DNA of 64,000 nucleotides from Yuukianura sp. NJ FZ-2021 (lineage: Eukaryota). Where the stretch lies: NCBI GenBank assembly GCA_046563655.1, contig CM102289.1, positions 8,494,001-8,558,000 of the forward strand, written 5' to 3'. This document shows positions 7,101 through 55,500 of this stretch, one piece after another; within the stretch, counting starts at the first letter, position 1; each line of letters starts with the position of its first letter. The position numbers were made by a program, and so were the translations under genes. Under the pieces are notes generated by a model. It saw only the letters and a list, made by a program, of their open reading frames with translations. It was not told the DNA's origin and searched no databases.

Positions 7101-9038
7101 GGGTTTTGATTATGTCCAGGCGGGAAAAGTAAGGTTATGTTTAAGTTAGGTGCAAAACTTTACTTTAGGCGTGGACATACGTTGTAACATACAACAGATG
7201 AGGATGTAATTTTTGGAAGGTAGTTTTCCGGTGAGTCAATATTGGGGAGAAAGGTGTGTAATGTATTTCTTAAATTGGAAACGGAGAAAGTGTGGGGGGA
7301 TATTGATGGTTATGTTACAAAGTACCAGTCGACGAGGGGGAGGAAGTTTATATTGGACTTCTATTCCTTGCAGTAATGGAGAAAGTACATGTACAAACGG
7401 TCCCACCGTGGCACAACACGGTGGAGGTTTAAGTTTTAGAAGGGGGTGACTCATGCTCTGAGTGGGGATCGATCCACCAGCCTGGTGGTGGTGGAGTAAC
7501 TTGTTCCAGCCTTAAAAACCACACCAGACGAATAGACTTACTTCCCATAAGTCCTGGAAGAAGAACAAAATCCAGGGAGTAATTTCATGGAGCTTCCCTC
7601 GTAAAGCCTTTCTCCTGGAGAAAGAACATGAAAAACCGTTTTTTCCGCCCTGTTCAAAAACTACTTTCTCCAGCAGCGTCTGCTTTAAGAAAAGCACGCT
7701 TTCCAGCGATTCTTCCAGCCCTCTCTGCTCCCTCTCCGTCATTTCCATTCCGATTATGTAATTTTTGGATTCACTTCCCCTTTGTTAGCACAACGGTACA
7801 GAAGTGAAAGTTTCCAGCATAGTGTTGGTGTCCCCCACAGTGGTAGTGCGTTTTAGAAAATTAGTTCAATAGAAATTCAAGAACCCTTCACACATTTGTT
7901 CTTTGCAATCATTTCGAGATCTTCCAGATTTGTTTTCGAGTGTTCCCGCGTTTTTCCTTTTGTCAATTTTCAAAATTTTAATTAAAATCTACCCGTCGTT
8001 TCCATTTTATACTCAGTGTTGAGCAGAACGCCGTCCACCAAAAGTCATAAATTCTGTCCAGCCTTCCACCGGGAGATTTTAAAAACTTTTCAAAGTAGTT
8101 TTCAAAAATCTTTGAAAAATCTAAGCATCACAGCAGCGGAGGACCCTTGCTGCTTAAAAACGCAGAGGGTGAAGTTTTTTGTTGAAACTTCAAAAATTGT
8201 TAATTTCTTTTGAAAAACTTGTTTCTTAACAATTTCTTTGGACCGTTGATTGGTGTGGTGGGCCCTTGAGTGAGGTTAGGAAGCCTAAGGGCTCCACCGG
8301 ATACCCTAACAAATGGATCTAAAGAATTGAAAAGCGGTGTGCCTGCTGCCATTGTTTCTTTACGTAACATCATTTTTTGTTCATTTTTTCAAAAATGACT
8401 TTCCGCCCGAAAAGAATTATAAGGGGCCCTTAAAGGCCTCATTTCCTCGGAATCAAACGCCCAAACGTGCCTGTCTTCTTTTGAAATGGAGGGGAACTGA
8501 CGCCAGACATGAAAAAACATTAGAGATCTCTTCGTAAGTTCTTTCTTTTCAACTTTAACTTAGGTTTACATTACGTTAGGTGCAGAAGTACAACAGGTAT
8601 ACAGAGGGGATGGAAATGATCAACGAAATCCCATTGTTGCGTGAACATCTCCCCGTTTGCCCTGGAGCCACTTTGACTCAGATCCTGCACGATGCTCTTC
8701 CCACGGTTTATTGACCAGTACACTTTGGAACTTTGGCAGAAGCAAACCTTGCTCGACTAGCTTCCAAATTTTCAAAAAACTCGTTTTTGAAAAAAGTTCC
8801 AAAACTGATTGAAATGTTTGTGAAGTGAATCAACATAACCTTTTTAGATTAGACTTTGACAAAAGAACAACAAAAAGTTTGACAAAAATGTGTCAATTTT
8901 GTGGAAATTTGCCAAGAAATGGAATTGGTGTCAGGACGAAATGTTAGTTTTAAGGACTAAAAAGTGAGACGTGACACCTTAACATAAAAGTGAAGTGTGA
9001 CATATTGTGGACGTGTCGATGTGTCAACTTTGGTTGTC

Positions 9039-18000: not shown

Positions 18001-21000
18001 AGTATCGTCCGATACAGTTTTTCTACGTTTTCAGACGGAGATGGAACTTTCTCTGTCGACAGTGCATCAGGAATCATTCGAACCGTGAAAGCACTGGACC
18101 GTGAAACAGTTTCACGGTACGAACTGGTCGTTCTTGCGACGGATCAAGGATCGCCTGAACTCACTGGAAAAACTAATGTCAAAATTGACGTTTTAGATGG
18201 TAAGAACAAATTGAACAAAAAAGTTAACTTTTTTTTGACAAATTTTAGGAAAATACAAATTTTGTGTGCTCTGTCAGCATTACTTATTCATAAATGCATA
18301 ATGCTGTCACGTCATTTCCCGATTTGACTTTTGATAGCAAGTTTTCATTGCTAATGAAGTATTGAACTCCGCCTTCAAAACATTTTATGCTATTTTATCC
18401 CGGTTGAATTGAATTTTCATTTCTTTTTAAACTTTTTTCTTTTTACAGTCAATGACAACCCGCCAATGTACGAGTCAGATCGAATCCGCTTCTTCATCCA
18501 AGAAAATTCACCCTTGGGCTCCACCGTTGGTAAATATTTGACTCATATGCATTGACTCTTAGCTATTTCCTATTTCGCACTCCAAAATTTACACAAAGTC
18601 ATGAAAAAAAATTCAATTTTCAAAATTTTCAAAAATTTAATTTCAATTTGATTCCAGGGAGGCTCCAGGCCTACGATCCAGATGAAGGTAGAATTGATTT
18701 TATTTGAATTTTTGACATTTTTGAAATCCTGGGAAGATTTTACCGTAGCAGGTGATATGGTCAGAAATATTTGGTCAGAAGTGAAATGATCAGAAGTGAA
18801 AAGGTCAGAATTCAAAAGATCTCAGGTTAGGTTTGGTTACGTTCCTTCCTTTTCTGACCTTTTTTTTTGATCATTTCACTTTTGATCTTTTCACTTTCTG
18901 ACCAAATCACATGGAACCGATTTTACTTCACCTTGTAAAAGTTTCCAAGTAAAAACTTGAAAAAAATTGAAATTTTGAAATTGTTTGTTGTTATAAAAGG
19001 CCCGAATGCTGTCATCACTTATTCAATTGTGGGTGGAGTTGATGCCAACAGCTTTACGTTAGTAACTCATCAGTTGCCGAATGGCGGCGACTCAGGAACT
19101 GCCGACATTTTAACAAAAATCGAATCACTCGATTTTGAATCCAAACGTAAAAAATTTGACATTATCGTTCGCGCTTCTTCTCCTCCTTTAAGAAACGACG
19201 TCCATGTTGAAATTCATGTTCAAGATGGTAAGCTCTACGCAAAATTGAAAAACCGCGGGAAATTGAGTAACTATGTCATTATTATAGTAATTGAGATTAC
19301 AACTGAATTGAAATTGTAACTGTCCCACATTTTTGTCACTTCCTAACTGTAAATTCTTTTGAAACTGGATTCTTTGATTACATTTTTGATGTTTAGTGAA
19401 TGACAATGGACCAGTTTTAAAACCATTTGAAATCATTCTGAACAACTACAAAGACCACTTTCCTGTCGGACCAATTGGAAGAGTTCCTGCTTCTGATGCT
19501 GACATAACAGATCAGGTAAAATGTCATCTCCAATTATTTTCAAAATTGAAAAGTGCTAATTTTCAAAATTAGTTTTTTGATTTTTGATTCTGGTCCAGCA
19601 GAAATTTGATTCACACGCTTCTGTTTTCAGAGCGTGTTTAGAAAAAAGTGTTTGATTTCGTGACTAGCGTTTCGGCTCTACTTTTTGCGTTTTTTTTTTT
19701 GTTCGTGTTTAAACAGTTTTACAAAAACTATATCATGTTTTGTAAAATTTTGCGTAGTGTTTTTTTTGCGAACTGTTAGAAATTGAAGTGGAAGTGCATG
19801 ACTAAAATTCTAAAACCGACACAAAACCAAAGGCATCTCAATTTTTTACTTTTGTAGATAATTGTCTCTTGACTTTGGGAAGTTGTTCTACTGGTTTTGA
19901 AGTCGTTATTATGTAAAAGGCGTTGACTCCTTCAAAAACTACATTACATTTTTGAGATACTAACATAAACAACCCGACTAATCCTTTGAAAAACTTTGGT
20001 TTCCTAAAAATCTCAATCAGATAATCCCGCTTTTCAGAGGAAAAGTCGGGCCCAAAAATCACAAAAGTCGGCGTAGGCGTTAAAACGTCTCTGTTTTTAC
20101 AAATTTTATGCTTGTTAACCGTAGCTCCAGTTTTAATCATCTTCGTGCTGAATATGGTCATGTCTTATGTTGTTCAGAAATTAAAATCTTTTGAAATTTG
20201 CCGCTTTTTTTTAAATTTTTAGCTTCAGTACTCCATTTTGAGTGGAAACAAAGCCAACTTGATTTACTTAAACGAAACAACTGGACTCATAACGCTGTCG
20301 CCCTACTTGGACACAAACGTTCCTCTTACTGCAAAAATGGAAATTTTAGTTTCAGGTAAGTTGCACGCCTCAATTTCTGTCACTTTGCATTAAAATTTTG
20401 GTAAAGTCTACAAAAAACGTAGTGGGGAACCCCACGGCGTGTTTTGTGTGGAGATTAAATGAAATACGACCGCGCAGTTTAAAATTTTAATGAAAAGGAT
20501 ACCGCCACGTTTTGAATTTAATTTGACCCTAACTTTAAACTTTAAATTACTTCAAAACGTGCCAAAAAATGAGTCATATAAGTCACAGCACTTTCCGAAG
20601 CTCCTCCCCTTTGTGTCTTACCAAGACAAATGGGTTGCAATTAAGTCAAATGTGCTGCGTAAAGTAGTTTTTCGGAGATTGATTAAGTACTCCAGGGAAA
20701 ATCGGAAGTAATTCCACGCCTTTTCCCGCCAAAACTTCATTCTATCCAGAAAACACTAAGCTCAAGTTCAAATTGGAAGCTAAAACGTAAAACCGAAGCT
20801 TTGCGTGTAGACTTCAATTATTCTAAAACTATTTGTTTAGGACTTTGTTTCAAACAGGGTTGAATTCACCCCGAATCTGAACAATTCCGAGTTTTAGTGA
20901 CCCCCCTAAAAGTAAACAAGTCAGGAGAAAGTCATTTTGTATCCAGGGAAAGCCAATCTGTACAAATTGTTTGTTCAGCACAGCGTGTGTTACAACTTTT

Positions 21001-24000
21001 CAGAAAAATTGAACTTTTCAAACTTTTGTTTGGGCTTTTAGATGGATTAAATGAAGTTCGAGCTGAAATGACTCTTCAAACGCGTATGATAACTGATGAG
21101 CTTCTGTTCAACTCAATTGGAGTTCAATTGTTAGATATGACAACGGAAGCATTTTTGTCTCCCCTCTTTCCACAATTTCATCAAGCATTGGCAGTGGCAC
21201 TGAACTCACCAAAAGAAAATATTGTCATTTTCAGTGTTCAGGTAAAAAAGTAGTTTCTCGTTCACGCGTAAAGTTGTAAAAAGTTTTAGAAATGAATTTT
21301 CTTTACGAGTGGCTATAAACTTTCTCGGTGGGGAACCATTTGATCTCTCGACAGGAGGAAATTGAAGATGCCCGCGGAGTGCTCAATGTCAGTTTTGCTG
21401 CCCGTAAACCAAATTCTGCTGCGGAAGAGTACTTTAGTCCAGACTATATCAAGGAACGCGTCTTTCTCAATAGATTTCTACTTTCCAAATTGAGTACTGT
21501 CGAGGTAAGAATAGAAAAAGTGGAGAATTTGGAATTTTTCAACTCAGAAACAAAAATTTTCAAAAAAATTGTCTCTAAAATTTTTAAGATTTTGCCATTT
21601 GCTGATGATTTGTGTCTGCTCGAACCTTGTCCGAATTTTGAAGATTGTCTAAGCGTTCTCAGATTTCGAAATACGACAAATTTTTTCAGTACGGACACAA
21701 TGTTGTTTCGTTCGGTACTTCCCTGGCAGACGTAAGTCATAAACCATAATGTTAAAATACTTAATTAATTTAAGCAAAAAGTTATTAATATGTTATAATT
21801 AATGAAATTATAATTAACTGATGTTTTTGTTCAGGTTTGCCTGTCGCTGTCCATCCGGATTTACTGGATTGCGAGAACATTATTTGTGTGACGCCGAAGT
21901 GAACCTATGTTTTTCCTCTCCGTGTCACAACGGTGGAACTTGTTTTAGAAAAGAACGTGGATTTTCGTGCGCATGTCCACCGGATTTTACCGGCGCACAC
22001 TGTGAAATTCAAACGACATTAGATACATGTCAACCCAACATTTGCTCTAGAGGGAGTAACTGTTTTCCTAAAATTCGTGGTGGATTTCACTGTCAAAATT
22101 GTTCAGTTCGTGGTGACTATGTGAATGACTTTTGCGAACTTTCTGCCCGGAGTTTCTACCGTGGAGCGTACTTGACTTTTCCTGGACTCAAGAATCGCTA
22201 TCGACTGAACATTCAATTGGATTTTGCAACTCAGCAACGCAATGGACTTCTACTGTACAATGGAAGATACAATGAAAAATTTGATTTTATTGCCCTCGAA
22301 ATTGTGAATTCAACAGTTCGGTTTAGTTTTTCACTGGGCTCAGTCAATGTCACACAAGTTGATACGGGAAAAGCCGTTTCCGATGGATTATGGCATCATG
22401 TTGAGGTGAACTACTTTAACAAGGTAAAAATTGCAGCTTTTTCGAACAAAATTTCAGGTTTTTCAAATAAAATTTCAGAATTTTCAGCTATTTTTGCTTT
22501 TTTCTGTTTGAAAACGTGTCTTATCTCTTTTTGGTCATTCCAGACAGCAACGCTGAGAATTGATGACTGTGATGCCATACTACATTTGGACCATCCAGAC
22601 GAATTTCCCGCTTCAAAAAGTTGTGCTGGAAGGTCCAGTCAAGTGCTGGATAGAAGATGTGACTTGTTCACAGAATCTTGTCAACGTTTTATGGACCTCA
22701 CTGGACCGCTGTACATAGGTGGCCTTCCAGGGCCGTCCAGTTCTTTTCAAGTTGAAGCCCACAGTTTCTTGGGGTGTATCAAAAATGTACTTTTAGACCA
22801 CAAATTTTTGGATTTGAACAGGTAAAAGCCCCATGCGGTTTTACTTTTAACTCAAATTTATAATACATTTTAAATTTAATGTGAAATTGCAATTTTTTTA
22901 AAAAATTTAGTTATGTAAAAGAGCATGGAACTGTTGCTGGTTGTCCGGAGAAGAAAAGTTTTTGTGCACTTCAACCCTGCAAAAATGGCGGGAAATGTGT
23001 CGAAGTGTGGGGAACATTTCGATGTCACTGCGCAGATGGATTTGGGCAGAAAGACTGTTCCGAAGGTAAAGAAAAACGGTTTTTGAGTTTCTAAAATTGA
23101 AAATTTTCAGAATTTATTGAAAAATTGTGATTTGTAATATTTTGTAGATTCCAAACCGATTTGGAACTTGAGGTCAGAGAGTAGTTTTCTGATGTTCTCA
23201 CCTCCACTGAAAACGATTCAGTTTCCCTGGTACAATTCCTTGTCGGTTCGGACTTTGAAACAATCCGGTGCACTTTTGAGCGTGACCCTGTCGAACAATG
23301 AAACAGTGATGCTGACAATGGAGAACAACGGAATTCTGCATTACACGTTAGATGGAAACAAGATTCCACTGAGTCTGCCCAGGGTCAACGATGGACATTG
23401 GCACAATATCGAAGTAAGTCTATCTGCAATTGTACCATTTTGTAAATCAACGATGTGAATCCAGCACAACTGCTAATTTTATCAAATACTTTCTAAAATA
23501 ACTTGCAACTTTTTTAACTTGCGCCAACGTCATGCAAAGAAAAACTGTCATTGTTAAAAATTTTCAAAAAATTTTGCTAAAAATTTTTTCCTACTATTTT
23601 AGGTGAAATGGATGACGGCAGAAATTTGGTTTTCGTTGGACTATGGCCAGTATGAAATCACTGTTCAGTATGAAGCCAAACTACAGAATTTGTACGTTAG
23701 CCAAGTCGTCGTTGGCGGTCCTGAGGAAGCTTTTGATGGTTGTGTGCAGGTAATATCCGACGGGTCAAAAAATAGTAGTTTCATAGGTCAAAGGTCAACT
23801 ACATTTTGTTAACCTAGGATGTACGCGTGGGAACTTTAAAATCGTACCTAAGGAAGCCTTCAAGTGAGAAGAGCGTCAGTGAGGGCTGTAACCTCGCCAC
23901 AGCATGGTGAGACCAACATGAACTATTTTTTTAAACTAATTATAAGCATTTATGAGCAAATTTTTTCACACCTAACTTTTCTTTTCCAATTTTTAGCATC

Positions 24001-27000
24001 GGAGCAACATGTCCACCGCGATCTACTTGTGTTGAAGAAGGCGGAAGACACAAATGTCGCTGTGATGCAGGGTATGTCGGAACCAGTTGCCTTCCAATTT
24101 GTGACCTCAAGCCATGCAAGAACAACGGCACATGCGCACTGGACTTGTCCAGTCCAAAAGGCTACACTTGTAGATGCGATGATCGGTTGTACCGTGGACC
24201 AAACTGCGAAGAGCTGCTAGATTTGACGTGCCCTTCGACATGGTGGAATACCGGCACAGACTGTGCTCCATGCTCTTGTCCAGCAGACAGAAACTTTAGT
24301 CCTGAATGCAACAAGAAATCGGGACAGTGCAAGTGCAAGGTCAGATTTTCTAAATTTCAAAATCAACTTTCAGCTATAAAAATTCATTTTTTTTTGAAAA
24401 TGTTGTATTTTAGGAATACCATTACGAAAAAGACGGAAGTTGTCGAGACTGTTTGTGCTACAGTGAAGGTTCCATTAGTAAAAACTGTGACGTGCACTCC
24501 GGGAAATGTCAATGCCGTAGTGGCGTTTCTGGAAGTCGATGTGACAGTTGCAATAATCCTTTCGCTGAAGTCACTTCTGCCGGCTGTGAAAGTAAAATTT
24601 TTAACTTTTTCTAGAAAAATTGAAATTTTGAAATTTATTTTCATTCTGTAGTTGTTGAAGACGGTTGTCCAAAATCTTTCACGAAAGACATTTGGTGGCC
24701 GAGGTCAAAGTTCGGCTCAACAGCCATTCATGAATGTCCATCTGGAGCCATTGGCCTTGCGACTCGAGAGTGCGTTGACCCCAGAGGCTGGGAACATCCA
24801 GACGTGTTCAACTGCACTTCAACCTCCCTCATTTCCATTTTGAATGTCATTGCGCAACTTGATTCCAATGATCTCCTTTTGTCTCCACTACTTTCTACCA
24901 AGTTGGCCTTTGACCTCCAAAAAGCACTTAACTCTTCCAAGCATCTTTACGGTAATGACTTGTGGGTGAGTCTGCGTCTTCTGCGGCATCTCATCCGATG
25001 CGAACTGGAACAAAAGGGGTTGTACCTTAGTCATCGGCAGGACAAAAATTTCATTAGAGTGAGCAATCAAATTTCATAATTTCAAACATTTTTCAAAAAC
25101 TGATTTTTATGAAAAAAAAATTAAATTTTTTAGGACTTGGCGCTTTCTACAAGTAGAATAACTTCCAAAGAATATGCTGCTGAATGGACCAGAATTCGTG
25201 ATTTGTACAACGTTGGATCAGATACACTTTTGAAAATTATGGAGGATTACCTTGCCCAACTAACGCTCAATCAAGAGGATACTTACACAAGACCTTTTGA
25301 AATTATCACACCAAATATGGGTTCGTTTGATATATTTCGAAAAAAAAAAATATCAGTTTTCTCAGCAATTTTCGAAAGAGAACGTAATATCTTTACTTTT
25401 TCTCAAAATTTTGTTTGTAGTTTTGGGGCTGGACACTGTAGAATTGACCTGGGAGAACAAAGATAGAAAGAACTTTGAAGATTTGGAATTGAAGTCGAGT
25501 TACGATCTGTACGAAGTCAGCACAGTAAAAAAGCGGGCAGTTCGATTTCCAAAGTACGACAACATTGTCATGGATCCAAGGCGCTACACTTCAAACACAA
25601 AAATCATCATTCCGTTGGATGTTCTTGGTCTAAATGAAGAAAAAGGTAAGCAATTGAACATTGAACAATCCGTTTGATAATTCCAATTTCAAATCCAAAA
25701 ATAAAATATTATTTTTGAAAACTTATTTTTTATAATGTAGAACATGTAGTTTAGTTTTACTTGTCTGTTTGTTTTTGTAGAAATGGCGGGTAACGCCGTT
25801 GTAGGGTACGTTGAGTACAATAGCCTTTGGGACATTCTTCCAAAGAGGTTCAAAAGTGATGTAGATAGACGCTTTAATTCCCGTGAGTTCACTTTTTTTC
25901 AAAATTTCAACAACATCTTCAAAAAAAATCAAAAATTTTGAAATTTTTAACCTTAGTTGTTAACTTTACAGAGTTAATTGCCCACTCTCCTGTGATTACC
26001 CTGAGCATTTTAGCCTCTCGAACTGGACTCAGAACTGGAAAGCAGTCGAGTCCTATTCGAATCAGCTACGAACTTTTTGGACGCTACATCGACTCTTCAA
26101 ATCCACAGGTATTTCAAAATTCAAAAAAAAAGAGATAATTCCAAAATTTCCAAATTTCTAAAAACACGTATACTTAAAAACTAATTACAATTAAAACTAT
26201 AGTGTGTGATATGGGAGGAGCCTACGGATGACATGAACGGTGGCTGGACGACACGTCCATGTTCAACCCAAGTACAAGAGACATACGTTGCTCATCGCAT
26301 GGGGAATGTCATGACTGTCAACTGCACTTGTTGGCACCTCTCCACATTTGCTCTACTAATTGAAAATAATGCTACTCAAGTACTGCAAATACTTCATGTG
26401 TCACACCCAATTACTCTTATTGTTTCAAACACAAAAGATCCAATTCATCTTCATTCTAAAAGAATCCAATTTGTCTTGATCTTCTTTAAAAAATGTAATT
26501 CACTTTGATTTTCTTTGAAAAATTTAATTTGTCTTGATTTTTAGGATATCCCGCGTCCTCATCTACTCGAAGACATCGTCACCTACCTTGCATTCGTATT
26601 TGCTCTGGTTCTAATATTTGGAGCTCTGGTGGCCCTTGGCCTGCTCAAGGGCCCCGTCCCTTCGACAATCACCAATACAATCCACAAGCACCTACTGTTC
26701 AATCTGTTCATATCCCTTTTACTCTACTTGGTTGGACTGAAACTAAGACTGATTTTAGTTCTACACGACATTCCTTGTCGTCTACTGGCAGTTGGACTCC
26801 ACTTCTTCTGGCTTTCTAGCTTCGCTTGGCTGTTCGGATCGTCTTTGCTTCTGCGCAGAATGTTCACGGAAGTTCGGGATGTCAATCACGGGTCGGCGTT
26901 GATTTATTATGCCCTGGGCTATGCGTTTCCCTTACTTTGTGTAGCCCTGAGTCTTGGTGTCAGAGCTCATCATTACGGAAACAAGTTCTTGTAAGTTCAA

Positions 27001-30361: not shown

Positions 30362-32314
30362 ATGTGGGTTTGGTGGCTCCTTATAACTTTTTTAGCATTT
30401 TGCTTCACTGTCCTAAAAGTACAAAATAAATTTAAGAAAAAAGACACAAAGTCTTATTGGGCAGCACGCGGGGTTTACAATTTCAAAGAATCAGAAGTAG
30501 CCTCGTTTTACGAACGATGGACCTACAGAATTCCGTTTCACTTTTTTGTTCAACGGATGTACAACGTTTTTAAAAAACAAGGACTACGATATGGCGGTAT
30601 TATGGAGGGGAGACCAACTTTAGTTCTCTTGGATCTGGAACTCATTAAACACGTTATGGTTAGACTTTTTGTCATGTGACCTTTGACCTTATGAATGGAA
30701 TACAGAAGGACATTGTAAAATCATAAATGAGCTTGATTTTCTAGGTGAAAGATTTCGACATTTTTGTAAATCGGACTGAAGCACAATTTGGAAAAGCAGA
30801 GGAAGTTCTACAGAAAATGTTAATTCGACTCAAAGACCAAGAGTGGAAGGATTTGAGGTAAATGTGTTAAAAAAAAAATTCAACATCAAAATCTCAAAAA
30901 TTCAAAATGTTACACAAAGTTAAACACACTTAACTTTTGCAACTTAATTTTGACACACGTTAATTTTTGGTTTGTAGAACCACCATTTCGCCTACGTTTT
31001 CATCCGGAAAAATCCGACGGATGTACCAAATTTTCAGCACATCCGCGTCCAAAATGGTTGATTATGTGAACGAAAAAGTACGTTTGAGTAGCACCGGAAA
31101 AGCTGAACTCGAAATTCGGGATTTCATGACCCGGTACACATTGGACGTCATTTCTTCAGCAGCATTTGGACTCGACGCACAAGCATTTGCCAAAGACGGG
31201 TCACAATTTATGGGCATGGCCAATCGAATGCAAACATACACCTTATGGAGTGGACTTATGTCACTGGCAAGACTCGTCCTACCAAAACTTTTCATTTTAC
31301 TGCGCATTCCAATTCGAGACGGAGAAATGCTGGAGTACTTCACCGGCGTCATTCGGAAAACTATTAAACAGCGCCAAGAAACCGGGCAAGTTCGGGACGA
31401 TTTTTTACAACTTTTAATTGAGGCTCAAAAACAAGTTTTGGAAGATGAAGAAACCGAACAGGTTTTGAAGGGAGCCAAAAAAATTAAGTTGACTGAATCA
31501 CACGTTTTGGCACAATGCATGATTTTCCTGTTTTCGGGTGTTGATGCTGTTGAAACGATGTTGATTTTCACTTGCTACTCTCTGGCTTTTAATCCTGATG
31601 TCCAGGAAAAGCTGTATCGGGAGGTTCGTGAGTCGTATGACCGGAATGGATCCACTTTTACGTACGAATCCATCATGGAAATGGAATACTTGGACAAGGT
31701 TTTATCCGAAGTCATGCGAATGTACCCACAAGGATTTCGAACTCCGCGCGTTGCTTCACAAGACTACAAAGTGCCAAATTCGGATCTTGTTCTGGAAAAA
31801 GGCACGCCCATACTTGTTCCGGTGTATGCAATTCACTATGACGAAGGTAACAAAGTAGCGAGGGAGAAAAATTTTGAAAATGAAAAAAAAAAATATTAAT
31901 TTGTGAAAATCTAAAAATTTTAGTTATTCTTTGATTTCCGTAGACTACTATCCGAATCCGCTAAAATTTGACCCTGAACGGTTTTCGGCTGAGAATAAGG
32001 GCAAGAGAAATACGTATGCATACATGCCTTTTGGTAAGCAAAATATAATTTTCAACAAAAAAAGATTGAAGTAATTTTGACATTTTTGAAAACTGAATCG
32101 TCGTTCCCTTTTAGGTGTTGGACCCAGAAACTGCATTGCAACACGATTTGCATTGTTTAAAGGAAAAGTAGCAATTGCAAATCTCGTGTTAAATTTTGAG
32201 CTGGAACCGTCACAAAAGACGGCAATTCCAATGAAATACTCGACCATGAAGGCAATGCGACCGAACGGTGGCGTCATTTACTTGGCAGTGAAAGCCCGTT
32301 CACAAGTGCAATAA
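30362..32314 (+). CDS. Cytochrome P450, CYP3 clan (CYP6/CYP9-like), 5 exons
   Basis: Exons at about 30362-30658, 30745-30857, 30979-31846, 31944-32033 and 32115-32314. N-terminal TM anchor, WKDLR (C-helix), [13 protein letters not shown] (ExxR), DPERF and heme motif [11 protein letters not shown] are all present. Confidence 0.95.
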
Positions 32315-43528: not shown

Positions 43529-46500
43529 ATGTTGAAATGGTTAAAACAGAAACCAGCTAGTGGACAAGATGAGACTGTGGTGGCTGCTGGAACGACAGAA
43601 AATCCATTGGCAACGATCCAAATCAACCCACCAATCACATCTTTACCAAAAACGCCTTTTAGCAAAAATTCAAACTCAAATCCAAATGAAGTTTATGCTG
43701 TGAGCAGGTTTGAAACTCAAAAAAAATCTAATTATTTCACAGAAATGCCATTTTTTCAAATTTAAATATCAGGCCCACACACTTTTTGCCGCCTATTCCT
43801 CTCCGCCTTGAATCGCATATCAAACAACTGGATCACATCAATTTATGCACGCCTGTCACTCAAGGTCTAAATTATTGTGACTTTTGAAAAAAAAAGTACC
43901 AGTTTTTACAAAAAAACGAAGAATTCTCAAAAAGATCTCCCAGAATGAAACTCATTTTACTAAAATTCAACTTAAACTGATAGCCGTTTGCAAAAAAGTT
44001 GCTTTTTAGTAAACTTTTTCTTAAAATTAAGCGACTCAAAATTTTTTTCATTTTCTTGAAATTTTGATTTTGAACAGAGTCAATCCCCTTTATGAAGAAG
44101 ATGGTGGATCCGGACTTATGTCACCCGGAATCCATTCTGGATCGTCCGGTTATGACTCTGAGCCAAGTGAAGACGACAGTCAAAACGACGCCGAATCAGA
44201 AGAATACGTTCTGCATGGCGCAACACGATCCGATCCGCTTGACATGATGCCAAATTCCCGCCTTTTTTCAAACCAAGAAGATTCATTAATCCAGCAAGAA
44301 GCAGCTACGACTCTAGTGGGCGTTCCCGGGCAAAATGTCTCTTCGGCGCCAATTTTAAACGTTGTCAAACAGAATCCTGCCTTTGTGAGCAGCATTGCGG
44401 TAGCCATTGATCCTCCCCTAACTGGTCGCCCTCTTGTGCCCATAGCCGAGTCCAAGGTCACCGGTTGGAAGTCTGTCACAGCCATTCCCGTTCCGATCCG
44501 AAACATCGATCCGCCCGCAAAACGCCCGGGAGACAAAATCGGATCGGCACGACTCATTCAACGGAATACGAACTACGTCCAGTCAATTCGGATCGTCCCG
44601 GCGTCAAAACCGTCAATTCCTTTCATTAAACGAAGCAACAGCAATCCACCAACCAGTAGAAGTACAGGCGCATCGCTTCTGCGCAAGCCTTCTGTGACAT
44701 TTTCGGATCGAGTTGATGTCGTTGATGGTAAACTGGTTCCGAGCTCACCGCGCCGACTCTCGGCCGACCAAGATTCAATAGTCACCGACTCATTGTTAAT
44801 GATGACTTCGTCTAACGGGTTGCTAGAAGCAGCTAGACATAGCCGCTCAAACTCTGGTGCAATGTTTACGCTTGCGCCGGAACTATCTGACAATGACGAG
44901 GAACAGCCAGACCCCGCCAGGATTAAACGAATTGCTGACGAGGGGTTGACATCGTTTTCGGATTCGTTAAGTCGAAACAGGATTATAAAGCAAGTAATGA
45001 CCAGGAGCAGTGCTAGTCCACCGCCACCGAATGAATCCGAAACTTCCCGAATCTCAGAGACTGAAAAATCAACGACAACGCGCAGGCCTCGGAATGTTTC
45101 GTCGGCATCCAAGTCACCTTTCGGCGGAATTGCTGACCACTATGCTAAGGAAATTGCCAAAGAAATTGAGTCTTACTCACAAGGAACAACTAAATCCACC
45201 AGAATCAGTAAGAATTTTGATTAATTTACTAAAATTTTGAACAAAAAAGTGCAAGGTTACACACGTCCTTCGCATTTTTCTGTTAAAAAAAGAGAGGACA
45301 GAAATGGCAAAAACCAATGACTCTATTAATTAATTTTTGCTGCTAATTGTCGCTCATTAAGGTCCTTATCCAAGGTCGTTTCAAAAATTTTCCAAAATTG
45401 GGAAACTAAGATTTACACAAAATTTCAGAAAAAGTAAACACATCAATTGTAATTTTTACAATGTCAACATGCTGATGAGACAAATGACAAAAAAAAAGTT
45501 TAGGCATTTTTCAAGGTTTTGAAGTCGTTTGGCCAGTAAATGACTAAAACATATTTTTTTTTCAACATGCGCAGTAAAACTGTTTAAGGTTAACTTTTAA
45601 AAAAATGCAGAACCGCAGAAACAAATTGATCCAAGTCATGCACTATTGGCAGCCCATAAAATTCAAAACTTTTGTGATATTTTCTAAAGTCAGATTTTTT
45701 CTTGAAATTTTACAGTTTTTGTTTAATAAAATTTTGAAAGGATTTCCTTGTCACGCGATTTCTAAAAAAGTTTAATGCTTGTCTAAGGTCAAGCTTTTGA
45801 GAGTAAAATTTTTAGGCCTAAATTGAAATTTGATGAAACTTGAGCTCTTTTATGTTACTTTTTGGCACGGGGAATACAAGTTTTTGCTGTTTAGTGCAAC
45901 TTTAATTATCGGGTAGCATGATTTTTGTGCAAAATGGTTTAAAATCTTCCTTGCTTTTTAGTAATTGTTGAGCCATTTAGTGCAGCGTTATTAAAATGGT
46001 TGTAAAAAGTTTCTGCACACCTTTAGCGAAATTGTTGCATGACTAGGAAGAAGAAACAGTGTACAAAAAAATAGTCAGGTTTTGAGATTTGAAATTATGT
46101 GGCGTTAAAGATTTATTTTTGGTACAAAAAAAATAACAACTAAAATGCATTACAAATGAATTTTGGACTTGATTTTACAAATTAGTTTGCAAAGCGTGAA
46201 GCGCGTGTGGTGCGATTTATGCTACTTGAAAATCTTGTTTTTACTTTGAAAAAAAATCAATTTAGTTTCACAAATATTTTCGTTTGTTTCTTTGTTGAAT
46301 GAGTGAGTTAAAACCTCCGTCTCAACTTTCTAGTTTTGCATTCCACGAACGTTTACGTTTTGGTTTTACCAAAAATTGTGCAATAAGTTGAGAAACTTAA
46401 ACGTTTTTCTCTACACAAAAGTTCATGAGCAATTTTCTTGACATTACGCAAGCGCCAGCTCATCTTGACTTGTTCTGTATTTCCTCGTGTCCTTGCCCTT

Positions 46501-49500
46501 TAGGAAGTAACGCTGAGGTGTCTCATGTTGACCAAAGGCAGGCTAGAGCAAGGTTTGTTTAACTTTGATTTTGTTTAACAGGTTGAGTAATACTTCAAGT
46601 TTTTTCGATTTTGCAAAAAAAAGTGTTCTTTTATTTCCGGGCATCGTAGTCATATATAGAACCGAATTTTTTAAATACTTACAATTTGGTACCAATTGTT
46701 TGGATTCGTATCAAAATTGCTACCAATTTCTTTTTGTCAACGAGCGAGGTAGTACTCAACCTGTTAAAGAAAATTAACTTTTCGTTGTCAATGAACCTTG
46801 GGCTAGAGGAAATCACATAGTGACTCACACGTTTCCTCAACCATCACAAAAGTTGTTGAAAAGTGACAAATTGAGATGTGCAATATTTGAATTTCCTCTT
46901 TTTCATACAGGTATGGTCAAAGACGTGCTGTTGTCAAATCGAGGTCGCGTAGGTGTTGTATCGACACCTTCCGCCAGCTCATCATCTCCTCCCTGGGCAA
47001 GCGGACAACTGCGACGACGTGACGAAGCTGACGAATTTGTGAATGCGCCTGCGCAGAGTCAAACCCTGGTCACCGCAGTGGTCCACCTCAAGTCACTGCC
47101 ACCAACGTCAAGTTCAGGACCCTCTGGGGAGTCGACCAGCAGAGGTCAACTTGTCGACGACGAGGAAACGGCAAGGACTCAGGCACAAGTGTATGTCAAG
47201 GCAAACGATTCGAGTTTCAGTAGTGTGACGATGACGAAGACTCTAAAAGACTCGGCTGTTGGCCAGCACATTTGTGGCCAACAGTATCAATTGGCAGCAT
47301 CGTCGAGTAGTCCTTTGAAACAACACGTTACGACCAAGAGGACTCTCGTTTATGACTCTCATGTTGATTCTCATTACCGCCAACATGAAGGCCAAGTTCA
47401 GGTAAACCAACTAAATTTTAGTAAAAACTTAAAGCAATCCAAATGCATTTGTACTGTTGGGTGCCGTAGCATAAGGTGTCAGAAGCTGTTGAGCTCTTAA
47501 GAAGGCATCATAGGGAGTCGTCTAGCCTATTGTCATGTTTTTGCATTGTTGTTAGTATTGTGGTCACACTTCTGGTTTTTTCTACGTACATTAACTTTTA
47601 ACAAAAGTACAATTGGATTTATTCACGCTTTGAAAAAAATTGTAGAAAAAACACCCACGCGACAACGACGCCAACCCGGAACTGAAGATTTTAAAATTTA
47701 GTGTGAAATTGGATTAAACTTGGAAACTTTGTAAAATCTGCTCACAATGAATAGAACTGCGCATGTGCTGAGCCGGAATTGTCCAGTTTCGTTTTTTGTA
47801 ATTAATTTGTGATAGTTTTTGTACAATTTGTTTTTGTTATAACTAAAAAGTTAAGTGATCATGGCAAGTCATGATTTCTTCTACGATTACGAGTACCATG
47901 ACTATGACAAATTTTATAGAAGACTAAGTGATCCATCTGAAGTATCTTCAGATAGTGGTGTACCTACACCGGATCGGGTAAATTTCAAAATTGCAACCAT
48001 TTTGAAAAATTTTGAAACTTTTTTTTTTGAAATTTTCTGATCATTGAACGCGAACCTCAACGTGAGCATTGGTAGGCCCATCAATGCTCACGTTACAATG
48101 TATGAAACATTTATGGAAAAATGCAATTTATTGAAAAATTGAAGTTGTGTTTTTTTTGTATTGTTGCGCAATCCGTTTAAAGTTTTTACCTTCGTGCTGA
48201 ATTACATTTTCAAGGAATGGATGAAAATGATCATGTTTTGGGCATGATGTTATATGAGATTTATTTTTTCAATGAGAAAGTGTAAAAATTGCTCATCTTA
48301 ATTTCCATTTTATTGAATGTTGAATAATAAACAATGATTTATTTCACTTTTATTAAAGGTTCCTATTTACGAGGCCTTGCCGCCAGGAACATCTTCACAC
48401 CTTCGCAGTCACTCCCACGATGACTCGGATTCTGGCAACTCTACGGACAGAGTAAGTCCATCGACCTTTCACTTTTTAGCACAGCATACTGCTAAAAAAA
48501 TCAACTTTTCAAAAAAAAAAATTTCAACTTTTTTTGTGAATTTAATATGAACATTTTCGGAATTGCCAATTTTTTGCAATTGAAAGATGAGTTGCAATTC
48601 TGGACGGAGCTTCTGGGCTTCGCTATCACGCTTCACCCACCTACTCAATTTTTTTTTTTGCAAATTTTTTGCAAACCTATAGTGATAATCCAAAATTTTA
48701 TGCAAATAGAGTCCAACTCAAGATCATTCGGGAGATGAAGCTCCGAAACTTCAAAAAGCCTTTGTTAGTCCAAATAGTCCAAGTTCCGAAGTGCCTCCGA
48801 CTGATCCAGTTCCTGGACACAAAGTGCTCCAGAAGCAACTACCGAGTGATATTCCTATTCCAAAAAAACTCCCGCCATCGTCATCTTCAAACGAGAAAGT
48901 GATGATAGTGTCCGGAGATAGTCAGAATATGGTGGTTGACTTAAGCGGAGTTCCGCCTGATCTGCGTGAAGCCATAATTTCTGGATCCGGTCTTGTTGCC
49001 GTACCGGACGAACTGAATCAGCGACTCGAACCGGGTTATGCAATGATAGCAATACCGCAGAATGACCACGAGTACGAAATCCTGCCTTCACCTAAACCGC
49101 ATGCGCAGACTCCGCCATATTCAAAAGAATCTTCCAAGGCTTCGGCAGAAGGACGGGACAATTATGTGGGCAAGAATTTAGCACAAGTTTGGGAGTCAAT
49201 GCAACAGAAGGGCAAAGGAAAACAGAGAATCACAACTGTCCTACCGCATCATCCTAATCCAGATTCTCATGTGAGTAAAAATTTATCATTTTATCAAAAA
49301 AGTTTTCGTAAAATTAGATTCCGAAAAAAAACCTTCAACAAAATGAAGTGTTGAAACCTCGTAATAGTTTTTAAGTAAACAAATTCCGACCACCTTTCAC
49401 ACTAGATAAAATCGGAGCTTCTTGCAAACTTTGTTTTTCTTGGAACAAAATTTTGCACTTTCATGCAATTATTCTGTAACGCCCTACGACGCTAAACAAC

Positions 49501-52500
49501 TGAAAAACACTCCACCAGACTACTCCTCTGAGTCTGCAGACTCCAGATCCCAATGACAACTGAAAATCACCACAACTGGAGAACCACCATCGATGAATAA
49601 TAAATATATGTATATATTTATTGAATCGATGGAACTGAAAAATATACAACTGATGAAACTAAAACATACTGGATCTCCCTCCGATCTCTACAAAAACCGG
49701 AAACCGACTGAACTCTATATACAATGCTCATCTCTCTCTACCACACCGCATCTCAAATCTCCCGCGACTCCACTCGCCGCATCTCTCTACAATCTCAATA
49801 AGATATAATCTTATGGCTACTAAGCCTACGCAGCAGACGCCAACACATTCCTCTCCAGATGATGGGTGTCGAGCCTGACGACCCGGGCCGACATCCATCA
49901 GCGACAAACGCCCAAGGCGGCTGCTCCGAAACTCCATCCTCCTCCTGGACATCAGCGGAGTCTTCATCATAGTCATCAGCGTAGTCATCATCCTGGTAAT
50001 CGTCCACCGCAGCATCCGATTCCTCCCGAGCGCTCCATCCAAAACGTCAGGCACTTTCACATTGTCACTCACTAAATCACTTCTCACTTTGATGGAAGTT
50101 GTCAAGACAACTCCCTTTGTATCCACATCATTACTTTTACTTTTAAAGTACATGTTCGCAAACACTGTTATTAAAAAACTGAGTCCACTACATTCCCACA
50201 AACTTTCAGCTCCTCCTTCCTTCACTTTACGGGACAGTGAGACCCTCGGCTGAACTTGTGGACAATGAGCACCACTAAAACACAAATAAGCGGAGGCCAA
50301 TAAATTGACTCCCATTAGTTGCCACAAATTCTGAGTGCCACCTTCCTTCACTTTACGGGACAGTGAGACCCAACCCCACTCAGAAATTGGAACAACAGAA
50401 TCATCACATGTTAATTTTATCACTTGAATGCACTTAAACACAATTCTTAATTTTGCTTCATTTCTCACTTTCATATTTCGTAGCACCGCAGCACTAAAAC
50501 TCTCACTTTGCAAAACTATAACGTCGCACTTCAGCACTGCCGGGCGAACATTTTCTTTAATTGTAATTCTTCGATTTAACACGTTTCTTGAAAGCTCACT
50601 TTCTGTAGCTTGAGTAACGCTGCGAGCCTCGCCGTTTGTGGCTGGGACAACGTCCTCCTCTTCTAATTTCCGAATCAACATTTTCTTCATAAGCTCACTG
50701 TTTGGAGCTTGAGTAACGCTGCGAGCCTCGCCATTTGTGGCTGGGACAACGTCCTCCTCTTCTAATTTCCGAATCAACATTTTCTTCATAAGCTCACTGT
50801 TTGGAGCTTGAGTAACGCTGCGAGCCTCGCCATTTGTGGCTGGGACAACGTACTCTGGGTTGACGCTGGAAGATTGAGGCCTCGTTTCCACACGTCCCCC
50901 TGTTGGCAGGATCCCGCAGTCTCCTCCAACACTTTTAACAAAACACTTCACAAAACCACTCAATTTCCCACTCTCTTCTTCAATTCTTGGCGGGATGAAG
51001 CACAGTACTGCCACTGCAGATAGCCAGTCACTGTCTTCGGGAGAGCCCTTGTCTAATCCACAATTTTCATCTTCTAATGGCGCTGGAATCCGCGAAAAGG
51101 CGTCCCCTTCCACAGACCTCCAGCCATCTTGACGCTTCCCTGGAACTCTCCATAACTTAATCTCAAAATCCCCCAAGTTTCTCTTCCTCTCTATCACCTT
51201 CTTCCACAAAAACACAATATTTACAAGTTGGAAGTTGCTAAAACGCAACTCCATATTTACAACACAACACTGCACTACTTCGTCCGGACACAACTTGACA
51301 CTCGGGTGAATGATGGACGAAATGTCATTCCCCTTCTTCAGTTTAAATTTTCTGGAACATCGTCAGAATTTTCATAATCATCTTCCTCTCCATATTCCCC
51401 ATAACCTTCTGAAACATCTTCCAAATTCTCCAATCGAAATGATCCAAGCGCAAAATCCACTGGCGTTGGACACTGAAACTCCTTATGACCACGCCCACTG
51501 CATCTCCAACCTATGACAGCATCTGGATCTCGAATCTGCCAATTACTACTTTGAGAACCATTAAAATGATTCTGTGGCTCACTGGCACGCACTACCACAT
51601 CACTATGTACAATATTTTCACCGATTTCCACTTCTGCACCCTCATTTTCATCACAATCTTCAATTTCAAAATTGTCGAAGCCAGTGTCACTGACTCCGTT
51701 ATGAACTTCCTCTTTTTCACAATCACTATCTTCTTTCTCACAATCACTTGCTTCTTTTTCAAAATTTACCTTCACAATTGGAGGTAATTGGTTCTTCAGT
51801 TTGTAAAGTTCATCTTCTGCGCATAGATTCGCATGTGCAACTCTACATGCTACAAACAACTGCTCAACTGTAGCATAACTGGCTGTTCCTAAGGCTGTAC
51901 GAAGCCTAGGATATAGAGCAAGCCTTGCCCTAAGCACTGAATCAGCCTCTGCTTCGTTAGGATAAATCAACTTTGCACTTTTCACCATTTCATAAATAAA
52001 CTGTTCAACTGGTTCATCCAGTTTTTGTCTTCGTGTGTGCAAGAGTCTAGTCCGCTCTGCCACATCAATCCAATTGTCATAACGTTTGACAAAAGCTTCT
52101 TTGAAATCACTCCACTCACTAACACTGATGAGCACATGCTCCAACCATGGCTGTGCTTCACTTGGCAACACTGTCTTCACTAAGTACAAAAACTGTGACT
52201 CAGCATGCCCTTGTGCTGAAAAATAACGCTCCACGTCATTCATGTATCCCTCCGCTGACATCCGCCTGGTGTCGAATTTTGGAACTGGCAATTTGGATGA
52301 CAACGAGGTGAATTTCACATTTTTCAGGGCCGTAATGAGCGCAACTGTAGCACTTGCACATTCACTTTTTACGGAGGCCGCAGCAGCGACTCCCATGGAC
52401 ACTTTTTGCACTATTTTTTCTTCCACGCCTTTCATGGCTTTGGCTACCGCAGCAGCCACTATTTTATCTACATCTTCCTGTGTGTAAGTTGCCATGGCCG

Positions 52501-55500
52501 AATCACCCGCAGGAGACGGCACTGAATCACTAAACACGCACACGGAGGCGAACTACACAATGAATGATATGTTCTGCCGCAGCAAAACTAGATCCATTTT
52601 TTGTACCAAAATGGTACTAACTAATCACTTTTTTTAACTCACACTGCACAAATTCACTGATTTTTTGGTCATTCGTGACCTTTGACATGAACGGAGGCCA
52701 CTGATAGTGACTCCCAAATGAATAAATTAGCGAAAGCCGCTGTTAGCGACTCTCATTAGGTGATTTTATGCACAGTACACTTTTTTAGGCACAAAAATTC
52801 ACAAATTTCACTCACTGTATCTTCTTTGGCCTCTGGTGACCTCCAGGTCACTGGATCTGTACACAAACGGTCGCCATGTGTAACGCCCTACGACGCTAAA
52901 CAACTGAAAAACACTCCACCAGACTACTCCTCTGAGTCTGCAGACTCCAGATCCCAATGACAACTGAAAATCACCACAACTGGAGAACCACCATCGATGA
53001 ATAATAAATATATGTATATATTTATTGAATCGATGGAACTGAAAAATATACAACTGATGAAACTAAAACATACTGGATCTCCCTCCGATCTCTACAAAAA
53101 CCGGAAACCGACTGAACTCTATATACAATGCTCATCTCTCTCTCTACCACACCGCATCTCAAATCTCCCGCGACTCCACTCGCCGCATCTCTCTACAATC
53201 TCAATAAGATATAATCTTATGGCTACTAAGCCTACGCAGCAGACGCCAACAATTCTCGAATTTCAAAATGTTCAAATCCGAAATTGGAAACATTAAAACA
53301 ACAAACTTTTTTTTTTTTGCTTTAGAATTGAGATGAACATTTTGAATGTGCTGTGCGTGTAATGTAATACTCCCTTGAACACATCATAAATTTCCACCGC
53401 ATTAGCTTACACAAATCCAAAGTCCACGAATAGCTTTGAAAGTCTTTTGCTAATTTTTCTGGCCTCACGTAGCACTATTTTGCACGTCAGCTATTTACGA
53501 AGATCACCAACTCAAAATTATTCCTAAAATTTAACGTGACGCCTGAATTCTGTTAAAAGCTTAAGCGTATTAAATCTTTTCCGAAAATTCCCATTCAAAC
53601 TTCAACAATTGTAGAAATTTTTCTCCCTACGCAAGTCCGGTTCTAGGGATCAAGCGGACCTGACATTCAATTTTAAATCCAGATTTGCATTTCCAGAAAA
53701 TCGTGCTTTTAAAACCGGTTTTAGTGGTGACGGTATTGCTAAAAAGTTGCTGAAAATTTTAACAGTTACTCTCGTGACGCTAGCAAGGTCATACTTCAAC
53801 AAATTTTCCAAATGGGATTATATGTAGCGTAAAATTTTTCAGAAATGTCAACTTAAAAATTTCAAACTTTCAAAATCTTTCGTTCCGGTTTTTGTGTTGT
53901 GACAGTTTAGGGCCACACACACAACATTAGAGTCGTGAACAGAGTGGCAGCATTTTAGTCAAGCTTGTCAAAACGAGATTCTTGTTAACAAAATTGTTAT
54001 GCGACGAATCCAATTTGTAAAATTCAAATCTGATTAGTAGTCACCTAACAAGAAAAAAACTGTTGCTGAAAATACTTAAATTAATTCATTTCAAAGGGCA
54101 TCCCTACATTCAAACTGCAATCATTAAGTTCAAAGTGCATGTTACTTATATTCAAATGCACTCACTAACTACTTCATTTACGACAAAACAATTGGAATCA
54201 TTGATTTGGCTTTTATCTTGATTTTTGTTACACCTTGTTCTTCCTAATTACGATCCTAAGCACATCTAAATGGGTATTATGGTAACTAAATTATGGTGTT
54301 CTGACCCCTGCCTGCCAATCCTACTCCACTTATAAGTCTTTTGTGATCCTACCCCAATGGAAATTGATCCCTCATGTCTTTATGTTAGGTTATGTTAGGC
54401 ACAATATGTTATGTTGTTGCATAATGCCTTCAGAGGCCTTGAGGAGCCTTCAACTTTTAGCCAGAGCAAGTGCCAAAACCATTATCATCCCCAATAATTC
54501 TGTAAATGTGGCTGCATTCTGCAAATATGTTGCTGTTATGAACTTGACGGGACTCAAATTGACGTAAAACGTCAAGGCAAGGAACCAATAAAATAGATTT
54601 GGTCGATGAAATTCATTTCTTATTATATTATTGGTGGCGTTAATCTCACTGCCAACAAATATTTAATGTTTTATTTCAAGTGAAAATGACTTCGACAGGG
54701 ATGTTAAAAGTACATTTGAGGAATATTGTGGAGTAAAGACTCATAAAGTTCTTGGTGTAGGAGGAAACTGCCGCGTAGTTTTTAAGTTTTGATTTTGGAA
54801 AATGTTTTGCCCAGTTGGAGAAAGTTTCTAAGTTTGGCTTGGCATCCAATGCTAAAACTGTGCAAATCCTGTTTTGTACTTGTATAATTTTTTTTTTTTT
54901 TGGAATTAATCTTTGTTTGGAAAATTTACATAGTTTTGTTTTTGTTTAGATTTAATTATTTTACAATTTTTGTATTCTAACCTGTTTAAATTTTTTCTGT
55001 TTTAATTTGTTGTGCATAGAACACGTTTTCTGCATTATTCTCGCCTGCTTAATTGTTACGTCTTTTAAAGTAGGATCGTCTGCTAACTTATGGGCTCAAA
55101 AACTTGTTTAAAACGGTCTAATTTTTTTGCGGAAACAGGTTACAAGCCACAAATTAATTATTTCATTTGTTTGTAAACAAAAACACGACAAAAGGGAGCG
55201 TCTGTACAAAATAGTAGGTGCAGACAAAACTATATGACGTTACTCGCATTTTTTGTTACTTTCAAATTAGTAGTTTTGCCAGAACTTCAAACTGCGCATT
55301 AAACCATTCAATTTAGCTAATTTCTCCAAAAATTTAAATAATTTCTGCCTGATTTGTTTTCTTGACGCATTAAGCAGTCTCTGTTTAATCGTTTGCTACC
55401 AAATTTAAAATTCAAGTAATCTGAAATTACTTTTTTAATAAATTTTTAATATAAACTGGCATTGTAAGGAATTCAAATAGCATTCTTAAACTTTTATTTA

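Follow-up and report, generated by a model that had tools for sequence, protein, structure and literature searches.

A predicted −1 frameshift signal of gag-pol type leads into a long orphan reading frame in a pol-less Ty3/gypsy-type element

We analysed a 64,000-nt stretch of contig CM102289.1 (positions 8,494,001 to 8,558,000 of the forward strand) from the Yuukianura sp. NJ FZ-2021 assembly GCA_046563655.1, referred to below as the window. Its minus strand carries a 3,777-bp long terminal repeat (LTR) element of the Ty3/gypsy (Metaviridae) type (49475-53251), and at the end of the gag gene of this element lies a predicted −1 programmed ribosomal frameshifting signal. The signal opens into a 544-codon open reading frame (ORF), here called ORF2, in the place where related elements encode Pol. 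We propose that this is probably the ancestral gag-pol signal of the lineage, carried on a non-autonomous derivative with an orphan ORF in place of pol, and that it would give rise to a Gag-ORF2 fusion protein. As proposed, the signal would comprise the slippery heptamer U_UUA_AAC, a 7-nt spacer and an H-type pseudoknot formed by pairing of the stem 1 loop with a segment 18 nt downstream. The derivative would have kept its LTRs, primer-binding site (PBS), polypurine tract and gag, with pol swapped for the 544-codon orphan ORF in the pol frame. The majority of ribosomes would terminate at the UGA of gag and make a Gag protein of 385 amino acids (aa). A minority would stall at the pseudoknot, slip by −1 on UUUAAAC and go on to produce a Gag-ORF2 fusion of 922 aa. 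This fusion would enter particles by means of its Gag part, as Gag-Pol does, and a pol-bearing helper would supply protease, reverse transcriptase and integrase to the element.

The 3' end of gag reads ...GAA AAU UUA AAC UGA on the minus strand, and the parts of the frameshift cassette that follow from there are listed in Table 1. In a constrained fold, stem 1 forms 9 bp with A51307 bulged, and stem 2 forms seven Watson-Crick base pairs that can be extended to nine. The pseudoknot loops measure 3 nt (L1), 1 nt (L2) and 18 nt (L3), with nothing sterically unusual for the H type. The −1 frame overlaps the end of gag by 24 nt, as it opens eight codons ahead of the gag stop with the heptamer inside the overlap. 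The locus has the sequence features that are expected of −1 frameshifting, namely a heptamer in the register of the zero frame, a 7-nt spacer, a predicted structure and an open −1 ORF. A first-pass annotation of this DNA had placed the heptamer, the spacer and both stems at these coordinates, and our reading of the minus strand agrees with it in each of these parts. The pseudoknot pairing that it drew can indeed form through both stems, at a combined energy that shuffled sequences did not reach (see below). The −1 frame, which it had described as free of stops, is open from the heptamer to the stop codon at 49730-49728 and includes the TTG at 51293 from which a 521-aa ORF had been listed. Its estimate of a fusion of about 920 aa corresponds to the 922 aa (385 + 537) that we predict from the ATG at 52495. 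Likewise, the ORF is no longer Pol, as had been stated, since no search that we ran returned a Pol match in a position where the relatives encode protease, reverse transcriptase, RNase H and integrase (PR-RT-RNaseH-IN).

The cassette stands out from its sequence background. The element, at 3,777 nt, contains a single TTTAAAC, and both strands of the window together contain 26. We compared the combined energy of a hairpin starting 4-9 nt after the heptamer and the best duplex of its loop with the next 45 nt to that of dinucleotide shuffles. The best hairpin and loop-to-downstream duplex of the element reached -21.8 kcal/mol, a value attained by 0/600 shuffles (null mean -7.7, minimum -19.5), and none of 1000 shuffles was as low as the stem 2 duplex alone (-13.3 kcal/mol). 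Searches of Rfam returned no matches for the whole window at gathering thresholds, and for the cassette only chance-level matches at E<=10. The heptamer U_UUA_AAC is counted among the most shift-prone ones in extracts of PMC5009743. The frameshift signal is likely to be mechanically functional, and the comparisons made here indicate that it is inherited, intact and structurally supported.

To place the signal in its lineage, we scanned metagenomes for the gag/−1 junction of related elements. This yielded seven loci (L001-L007), of which L007, with a broken gag, ends ahead of the junction and was left out. All six relatives that reach the end of gag have exactly one TTTAAAC, in register, within the overlap of gag and the −1 ORF. 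A hairpin follows 4-5 nt after the heptamer in all six, and in each case it was equalled by at most 3/100 shuffles. The −1 ORF contains Pol domains (PR-RT-RNaseH-IN) in 5/5 loci that were long enough for the domain scan. As the heptamer and the hairpin are shared with Pol-encoding relatives, the cassette is the inherited gag-pol signal of this clade. Conservation among relatives applies to the heptamer in register and to the hairpin (6/6), with modest support for stem 2. Pairing between the hairpin loop and a segment 9-21 nt past the hairpin is possible in L001-L005 (-8.2 to -10.1 kcal/mol), and the predicted pairings differ between loci: CCCC:GGGG in L001-L003, CUCC:GGAG in L004 and CCGC:GCGG in L005. 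In the MAFFT alignment A3, 69% of cells were paired, compared with 29-43% when the partners were slid, and two pairs had changed on both sides, one of them from C-G to U-A at columns 37/83; the shuffle p-values of stem 2, given below, were modest. The comparison thus defines a conserved U_UUA_AAC with a predicted loop-to-downstream pseudoknot, without an Rfam match, for a Ty3/gypsy clade that is seen here mostly in metagenomic contigs.

Two of these relatives have features of their own. In L005 (1485-1696), the −1 frame is open to the end of the contig and lacks the D(T/S)G protease motif that the other relatives have, and L005 may be another degenerate or pol-altered relative. In L001, pol is followed by a third ORF (6061-7566) with a DNA_pol_A_exo1 domain (DEDDy-type 3'-5' exonuclease, E 4.2e-26), which may be part of the element or of a gene next to it. 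An ORF3 with the same type of exonuclease is described for LTR elements of bdelloid rotifers in extracts of PMC5408684.

The gag gene ties the element to the same lineage. On its own, window gag remained under the Pfam cut-offs (Arc_capsid_dom 18.5 bits, Retrotrans_gag 15.8 bits). A word-index protein search with gag gave no match and no gag relatives were found in viral contigs; an exhaustive HMMER scan with gag identified 219 relatives (E<=0.001). Three long gag relatives are Ty3/gypsy gag-PR-RT-RNaseH-IN polyproteins, and a profile of gag and seven relatives (alignment A2) matched the Arc capsid 7r1z over profile positions 103-250 (E 2.1e-13). The heptamer can also be followed at the protein level, as UUA AAC encodes Leu-Asn. 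This dipeptide is found within the last 25 residues of 70 of the 150 listed relatives (of 219), compared with 245/2305 background windows of 25 residues, and 12 of the 150 listed relatives terminate in LN. In many relatives the sequence runs on as LN-x-x-G-(R/G), as would suit a stem 1 arm that is rich in G and lies a few bases further on. The zinc knuckle of Gag is degenerate, with a Gly (GGA) in place of the first Cys, so that the CCHC is incomplete; relatives have C-x2-C-x4-H-x4-C at the same columns. The closest gag relative, P0001, is also without a zinc knuckle. Gag in this pol-less lineage may be losing its nucleocapsid function.

ORF2 is open from 51362 to 49731 and extends across the polypurine tract and 117 nt of the 3' LTR. 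Its frame contains no stops, compared with 50 and 49 in the two other sense frames, and the longest ORF among 2000 shuffles was 179 codons, against the 544 seen. Three-base periodicity was significant in ORF2 (chi2 30.3, p 3.5e-5), with gag at chi2 90.8 and the leader, as a control, at p 0.10. Repeats within ORF2 keep to multiples of three: the tandem periods are 12 nt and 99 nt, and a further repeat is spaced at 126 nt. No Pol domain was found in ORF2, nor any similarity to the Pol of the relatives, and the protease motif D(T/S)G, which lies about 40 residues after the shift in relatives, is absent from it. In comparisons with L001-L007, with all collected proteins and with the remaining window sequence, ORF2 gave nothing under E 0.5 save itself and the LTR tail. 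Its matches to Pfam were all sub-threshold, and that to PAS (19.4 bits) lay on the tandem repeats. The last 38 codons of ORF2 (49731-49845) are encoded by the U3 of the 3' LTR.

The remainder of the element has the anatomy of a Ty3/gypsy LTR element: TG...CA LTRs, a target-site duplication (TSD), a PBS, a polypurine tract and a Gag of the two-lobed capsid type. What it lacks is a PR-RT-RNaseH-IN Pol. As ORF2 contains no Pol domain, we class the element as a non-autonomous derivative of the lineage and not as an autonomous member. Its interior is nearly all coding, with 385 codons of gag and 544 codons of ORF2. The two LTRs are identical at 371/373 columns (blastn) and have no substitutions; they differ solely by an indel of 2 nt within an (AG)n run. 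The empty site was recovered precisely from sequencing runs: a joint 49470->53252 omits 3,781 nt (3,777 + 4), with 5 nt fitting both sides, in 4/4 runs from two samples and two studies. Two features mark the insertion as very young: no substitution separates its LTRs, and other samples show the site empty. The 64-kb window yielded no tRNA genes. A scan for sigma-70 promoters and terminators, which is irrelevant to a eukaryote, found nothing above shuffles. GC skew falls to -0.30 on the plus strand across the element (48001-54000), far beyond the rest of the window; the sense strand of the element is therefore G-rich and C-poor.

The family to which the copy belongs was examined in sequencing runs. 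Five DNA runs contain parts of the element and the contigs of four were compared, of which X1-X3 derive from one sample and X4 from another study with another organism label. Each run has 203-534 contigs across 4.3 kb at 80-100% identity, covering all 30 bins including those of ORF2, and the contig identities are about evenly spread over 99+, 95-99, 90-95 and under 90%. This indicates many diverged family copies, with the contig depth not to be read as a copy number. Contigs that are 85-90% identical to the window cover segments of ORF2 (records 1, 2 and 9), and the ORF2-bearing lineage is therefore much older than the present insertion. A further group of contigs diverges from the window at 51304 (4 in X1, 3 in X2). 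Their 30-nt consensus, compared by hand, equals the window at 7/7 positions of the stem 2 3' arm and at 7/23 others. Stem 2 is thus conserved in a lineage with an unrelated loop 3 and downstream sequence. Differences within the family were assessed on the best-supported ones listed, beyond which there are 1103 more substitutions and 199 more indels. Among those listed, the indel groups keep the frame in 4/5 cases inside ORF2 and in 0/3 in the leader or LTR. Of the best-supported substitutions, 5/13 are synonymous in ORF2 (8 are not) and 6/17 in gag (11 are not).

Several of our results weigh against the proposal of an ancestral signal that serves a Gag-ORF2 fusion. At the signal itself, stem 1 alone is unremarkable, being equalled by 30/100 shuffles, and a nested-only fold of 91 nt, made with a program that is unable to represent pseudoknots, is no more stable than expected (z = +1.04, equalled by 169/200 shuffles). 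Among the relatives, stem 2 is individually weak when compared to shuffles (p 0.015 to 0.36) and its duplex in L006 reaches only -3.1 kcal/mol. As the stem 2 3' arms of the relatives lie in a conserved Gly-Val codon pair, coding constraint contributes to their conservation, and the family contigs with a conserved stem 2 may come from pol-bearing copies, which would require the signal to make Pol. ORF2 is rich in V, L, S, R and G, like translated G/T-rich DNA. A word-index search found no ORF2 homolog, the exhaustive HMMER scan having been made for gag only, and ORF2 had no match in viral contigs and none among PDB sequences at E<=1. Its best match in the ESM Atlas (0.78) is under the lead level, with a recognition score typical of shuffled sequence, and AlphaFold on the single sequence gave no confident fold (mean pLDDT, the per-residue confidence measure, of 34). 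The sole strongly hydrophobic 19-residue segment of ORF2 (residues 500-518, Kyte-Doolittle mean 2.24) is U3-encoded. In the family copies, a listed ORF2 indel at 51014 breaks the frame in some contigs, and the synonymous share in ORF2 fails to demonstrate purifying selection. Finally, as the insertion is very young, simple inheritance could account for the intact signal in the present copy.

This last point is the core of a first alternative, in which the signal is an inherited relic that works and serves nothing. The element would be a recent chimera, its ORF2 would not yet have decayed and the fusion would be a by-product. Besides the youth of the copy, this would explain why ORF2 has no relatives or confident fold, why its composition appears nucleotide-driven, why its synonymous share (5/13) is not clearly raised and why it has no terminator of its own, running on into U3 instead. 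However, the ORF2-bearing lineage is far older than this copy, as the contigs at 85-90% identity attest, and yet there are no stops in 544 codons. The frame-preserving period of every repeat in ORF2, the 4/5 listed indel groups that keep the frame and its codon periodicity (p 3.5e-5) also weigh against a relic, which we regard as rather unlikely. The first-pass annotation had read the retention of the signal as a sign of selection, either on the fusion or on the avoidance of nonsense-mediated decay (NMD). The evidence on this is divided: the open 544 codons, the periodicity and the frame-keeping repeats and indels speak for it, and the youth of the copy speaks against it. We consider the odds that ORF2 is kept open by selection to be about even, where the age of the ORF2-bearing lineage set against the youth of the present copy leans towards selection. 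What such a fusion might do is a matter for tentative suggestion. It is conceivable, though we would not count on it, that this pol-less parasite appends a fast-evolving orphan polypeptide to part of its Gag as cargo in helper particles, aiding itself or interfering with the helper.

A second alternative concerns the stimulator, which might not be an H-type pseudoknot. Frameshifting could instead be stimulated by the stem 1 hairpin alone, or by the stem 2 arms folding as one large hairpin. Simple hairpins can stimulate −1 frameshifting, as is generally known and as extracts of PMC5009743 state, and the centroid of the nested fold consists of the long-range helix (stem 2) alone, at 9 bp. Taken by itself, however, this helix would start at a distance of 17 nt from the heptamer, where 5-9 nt are usual, and stem 1 by itself is weak. 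With an L1 of 3 nt and an L3 of 18 nt, both helices can be accommodated sterically in one pseudoknot, and the loop-to-downstream arrangement recurs in L001-L005. A hairpin stimulator therefore appears improbable.

A third alternative is that ORF2 is real and separately expressed, for instance as an env-like or accessory protein, whether by splicing to a subgenomic RNA or by initiation at an internal site, with its continuity in the −1 frame being incidental. Invertebrate LTR elements contain many kinds of extra ORFs, according to extracts of PMC5408684. In-frame AUG and TTG codons are present near the 5' end of ORF2 and its only strongly hydrophobic segment is C-terminal, which would suit such a protein. 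Against this, ORF2 overlaps gag exactly at the heptamer, like pol in the six relatives, and no signal peptide or envelope-like family was found in ORF2, so that we hold separate expression to be very unlikely. A chance origin of the ORF and the motif from the composition of a strand rich in G and poor in C, as the GC skew of -0.30 might suggest, is effectively refuted by the 49-50 stops that each of the two remaining sense frames has over this stretch, by a longest shuffled ORF of 179 codons against 544, by the heptamer and hairpin at the same place in 6/6 relatives and by the 0/600 shuffles that reach the energy of the cassette.

The proposed arrangement, an ancestral signal that leads into an orphan ORF on a non-autonomous element, can be compared with several known systems. 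With the gag-pol frameshifting of Ty3/gypsy elements and retroviruses, and with that of the coronavirus IBV type, it has in common an X_XXY_YYZ heptamer, a spacer, a pseudoknot and, for gag-pol, a short gag/−1 overlap. Unlike known gag-pol frameshifting, the −1 ORF of the element holds no protease, reverse transcriptase, RNase H, integrase or anything else recognisable. The second ORF of PEG10 is still a pol-derived protease, whereas ORF2 is not pol-derived by any test that we made. Extracts of PMC5009743 describe PEG10, PNMA3/PNMA5 and ZCCHC5 as domesticated Ty3/gypsy gag genes that retained −1 frameshifting after the loss of reverse transcriptase and integrase. To the extent covered there, the element resembles the PEG10/PNMA type in its gag-derived first ORF, in a signal kept without reverse transcriptase and integrase, and in a Gag-ORF2 fusion that is predicted (here) or shown. 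It differs in that PEG10/PNMA genes are, in the same extracts, immobile host genes without LTRs, whereas the element is mobile, with near-identical LTRs, a TSD, an empty site and many diverged copies. Immobility, absence of LTRs and a low number of copies, as in PEG10/PNMA genes, do not apply to a family with hundreds of contigs at 80-100% identity and an empty site in other samples, and we do not place the element among them.

LARD and TRIM elements are non-coding. The element resembles these and the rotifer element TelKA2n (the latter as far as extracts describe it) in that LTRs, PBS and polypurine tract are kept, pol is lost and movement would depend on a helper. Since its interior has coding capacity, it is not a LARD or TRIM element. 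TelKA2n retains env and is without part of gag (extracts of PMC5408684), whereas the element keeps the whole of gag and the recoding signal, with a long orphan ORF in the slot of pol. The same extracts describe that in Vesta, Juno and TelKA of bdelloid rotifers, an extra ORF was added as a separate ORF3 after an intact pol. These captured ORFs are similar to ORF2 in being a modular gain of non-pol coding sequence in an invertebrate Ty3/gypsy-type element. The difference, judged from those extracts, is that the extra ORF of our element replaces pol and would be reached by frameshifting. In keyword searches of open-access text, which are not proof of absence, we found no precedent for a mobile LTR element with a frameshift into a non-pol ORF.

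Frameshifting between gag and pol is textbook knowledge. The unusual point in this case is that the signal persists in an element which is mobile and apparently successful, ahead of a frame that encodes no replication enzyme and yet is open for 544 codons. Selection on ORF2, if real, would mean that recoding gives non-autonomous retroelements a way to deliver new cargo by means of Gag; new coding sequence could then originate, or be acquired, in the pol slot downstream of a frameshift site. Without such selection, the element would instead provide a dated case of the time for which a recoding signal and an open frame outlast pol. Should the fusion indeed act as cargo, the element would be a mobile counterpart of PEG10-type recoding, with new coding sequence arising behind a recoding signal.

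Table 1. Features of the Ty3/gypsy-type element and its predicted frameshift cassette (window coordinates)
Feature	Position	Strand	Basis or remark
Slippery heptamer U_UUA_AAC, in gag register	51341..51347	minus	direct reading
gag stop UGA	51340-51338	minus	inside spacer
Spacer UGAAGAA, 7 nt	51334..51340	minus	direct reading
Stem 1 5' arm GGGGAAUGA	51325..51333	minus	constrained fold
Stem 1 3' arm UCAUUCACCC = UCAUUC-A-CCC	51304..51313	minus	constrained fold
Stem 2 5' arm UUCGUCC, within stem 1 loop	51315..51321	minus	duplex -13.3 kcal/mol
Stem 2 3' arm GGACGAA, 18 nt past stem 1	51279..51285	minus	duplex with 51315..51321
TSD, upstream copy	53252..53255	minus	GAAT; 5 nt AGAAT if LTR end set one base earlier
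5' LTR, 373 nt, TG...CA	52879..53251	minus	direct repeats and blastn
PBS-like sequence, TGG-initiated, 2 nt past 5' LTR	52860..52876	minus	TGGCGACCG..., direct reading
gag, 385 aa from ATG 52495 (listed ORF start GTG 52543, 401 aa)	51338..52495	minus	ORF listing
Degenerate zinc knuckle G-W-R-C-x4-H-x4-C	51470..51511	minus	alignment A2
ORF2, 544 codons stop to stop, 537 codons added after shift	49728..51362	minus	frame reading
99-nt tandem repeat, 2.8 copies, in frame (33 aa per unit)	50584..50855	minus	repeat finding
Two 73-nt repeat copies, family D4, spacing 126 nt, in frame (42 aa)	50173..50371	minus	repeat finding
Polypurine tract GGAGAGGAA, 2 nt ahead of 3' LTR	49848..49856	minus	direct reading
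3' LTR, 371 nt	49475..49845	minus	direct repeats and blastn
TSD, downstream copy, GAAT	49471..49474	minus	reading and empty site

Open frames at 44031-45224, 46778-47500 and 48710-49354 (plus; 397, 240 and 214 codons) adjoin the element and have no Pfam family at E<=0.001. A 311-codon cytochrome P450 exon at 30964-31899 (plus; E 1.2e-42) has about 30% identity with CYP3-clan proteins of arthropods and molluscs. Large exons with cadherin repeats, EGF and laminin-G domains at 10339-24651 (plus) are consistent with a giant cadherin gene of the FAT or Flamingo type. As cadherin, laminin-G, EGF and cytochrome P450 exons are found nearby, the host is an animal, of invertebrate-like kind.

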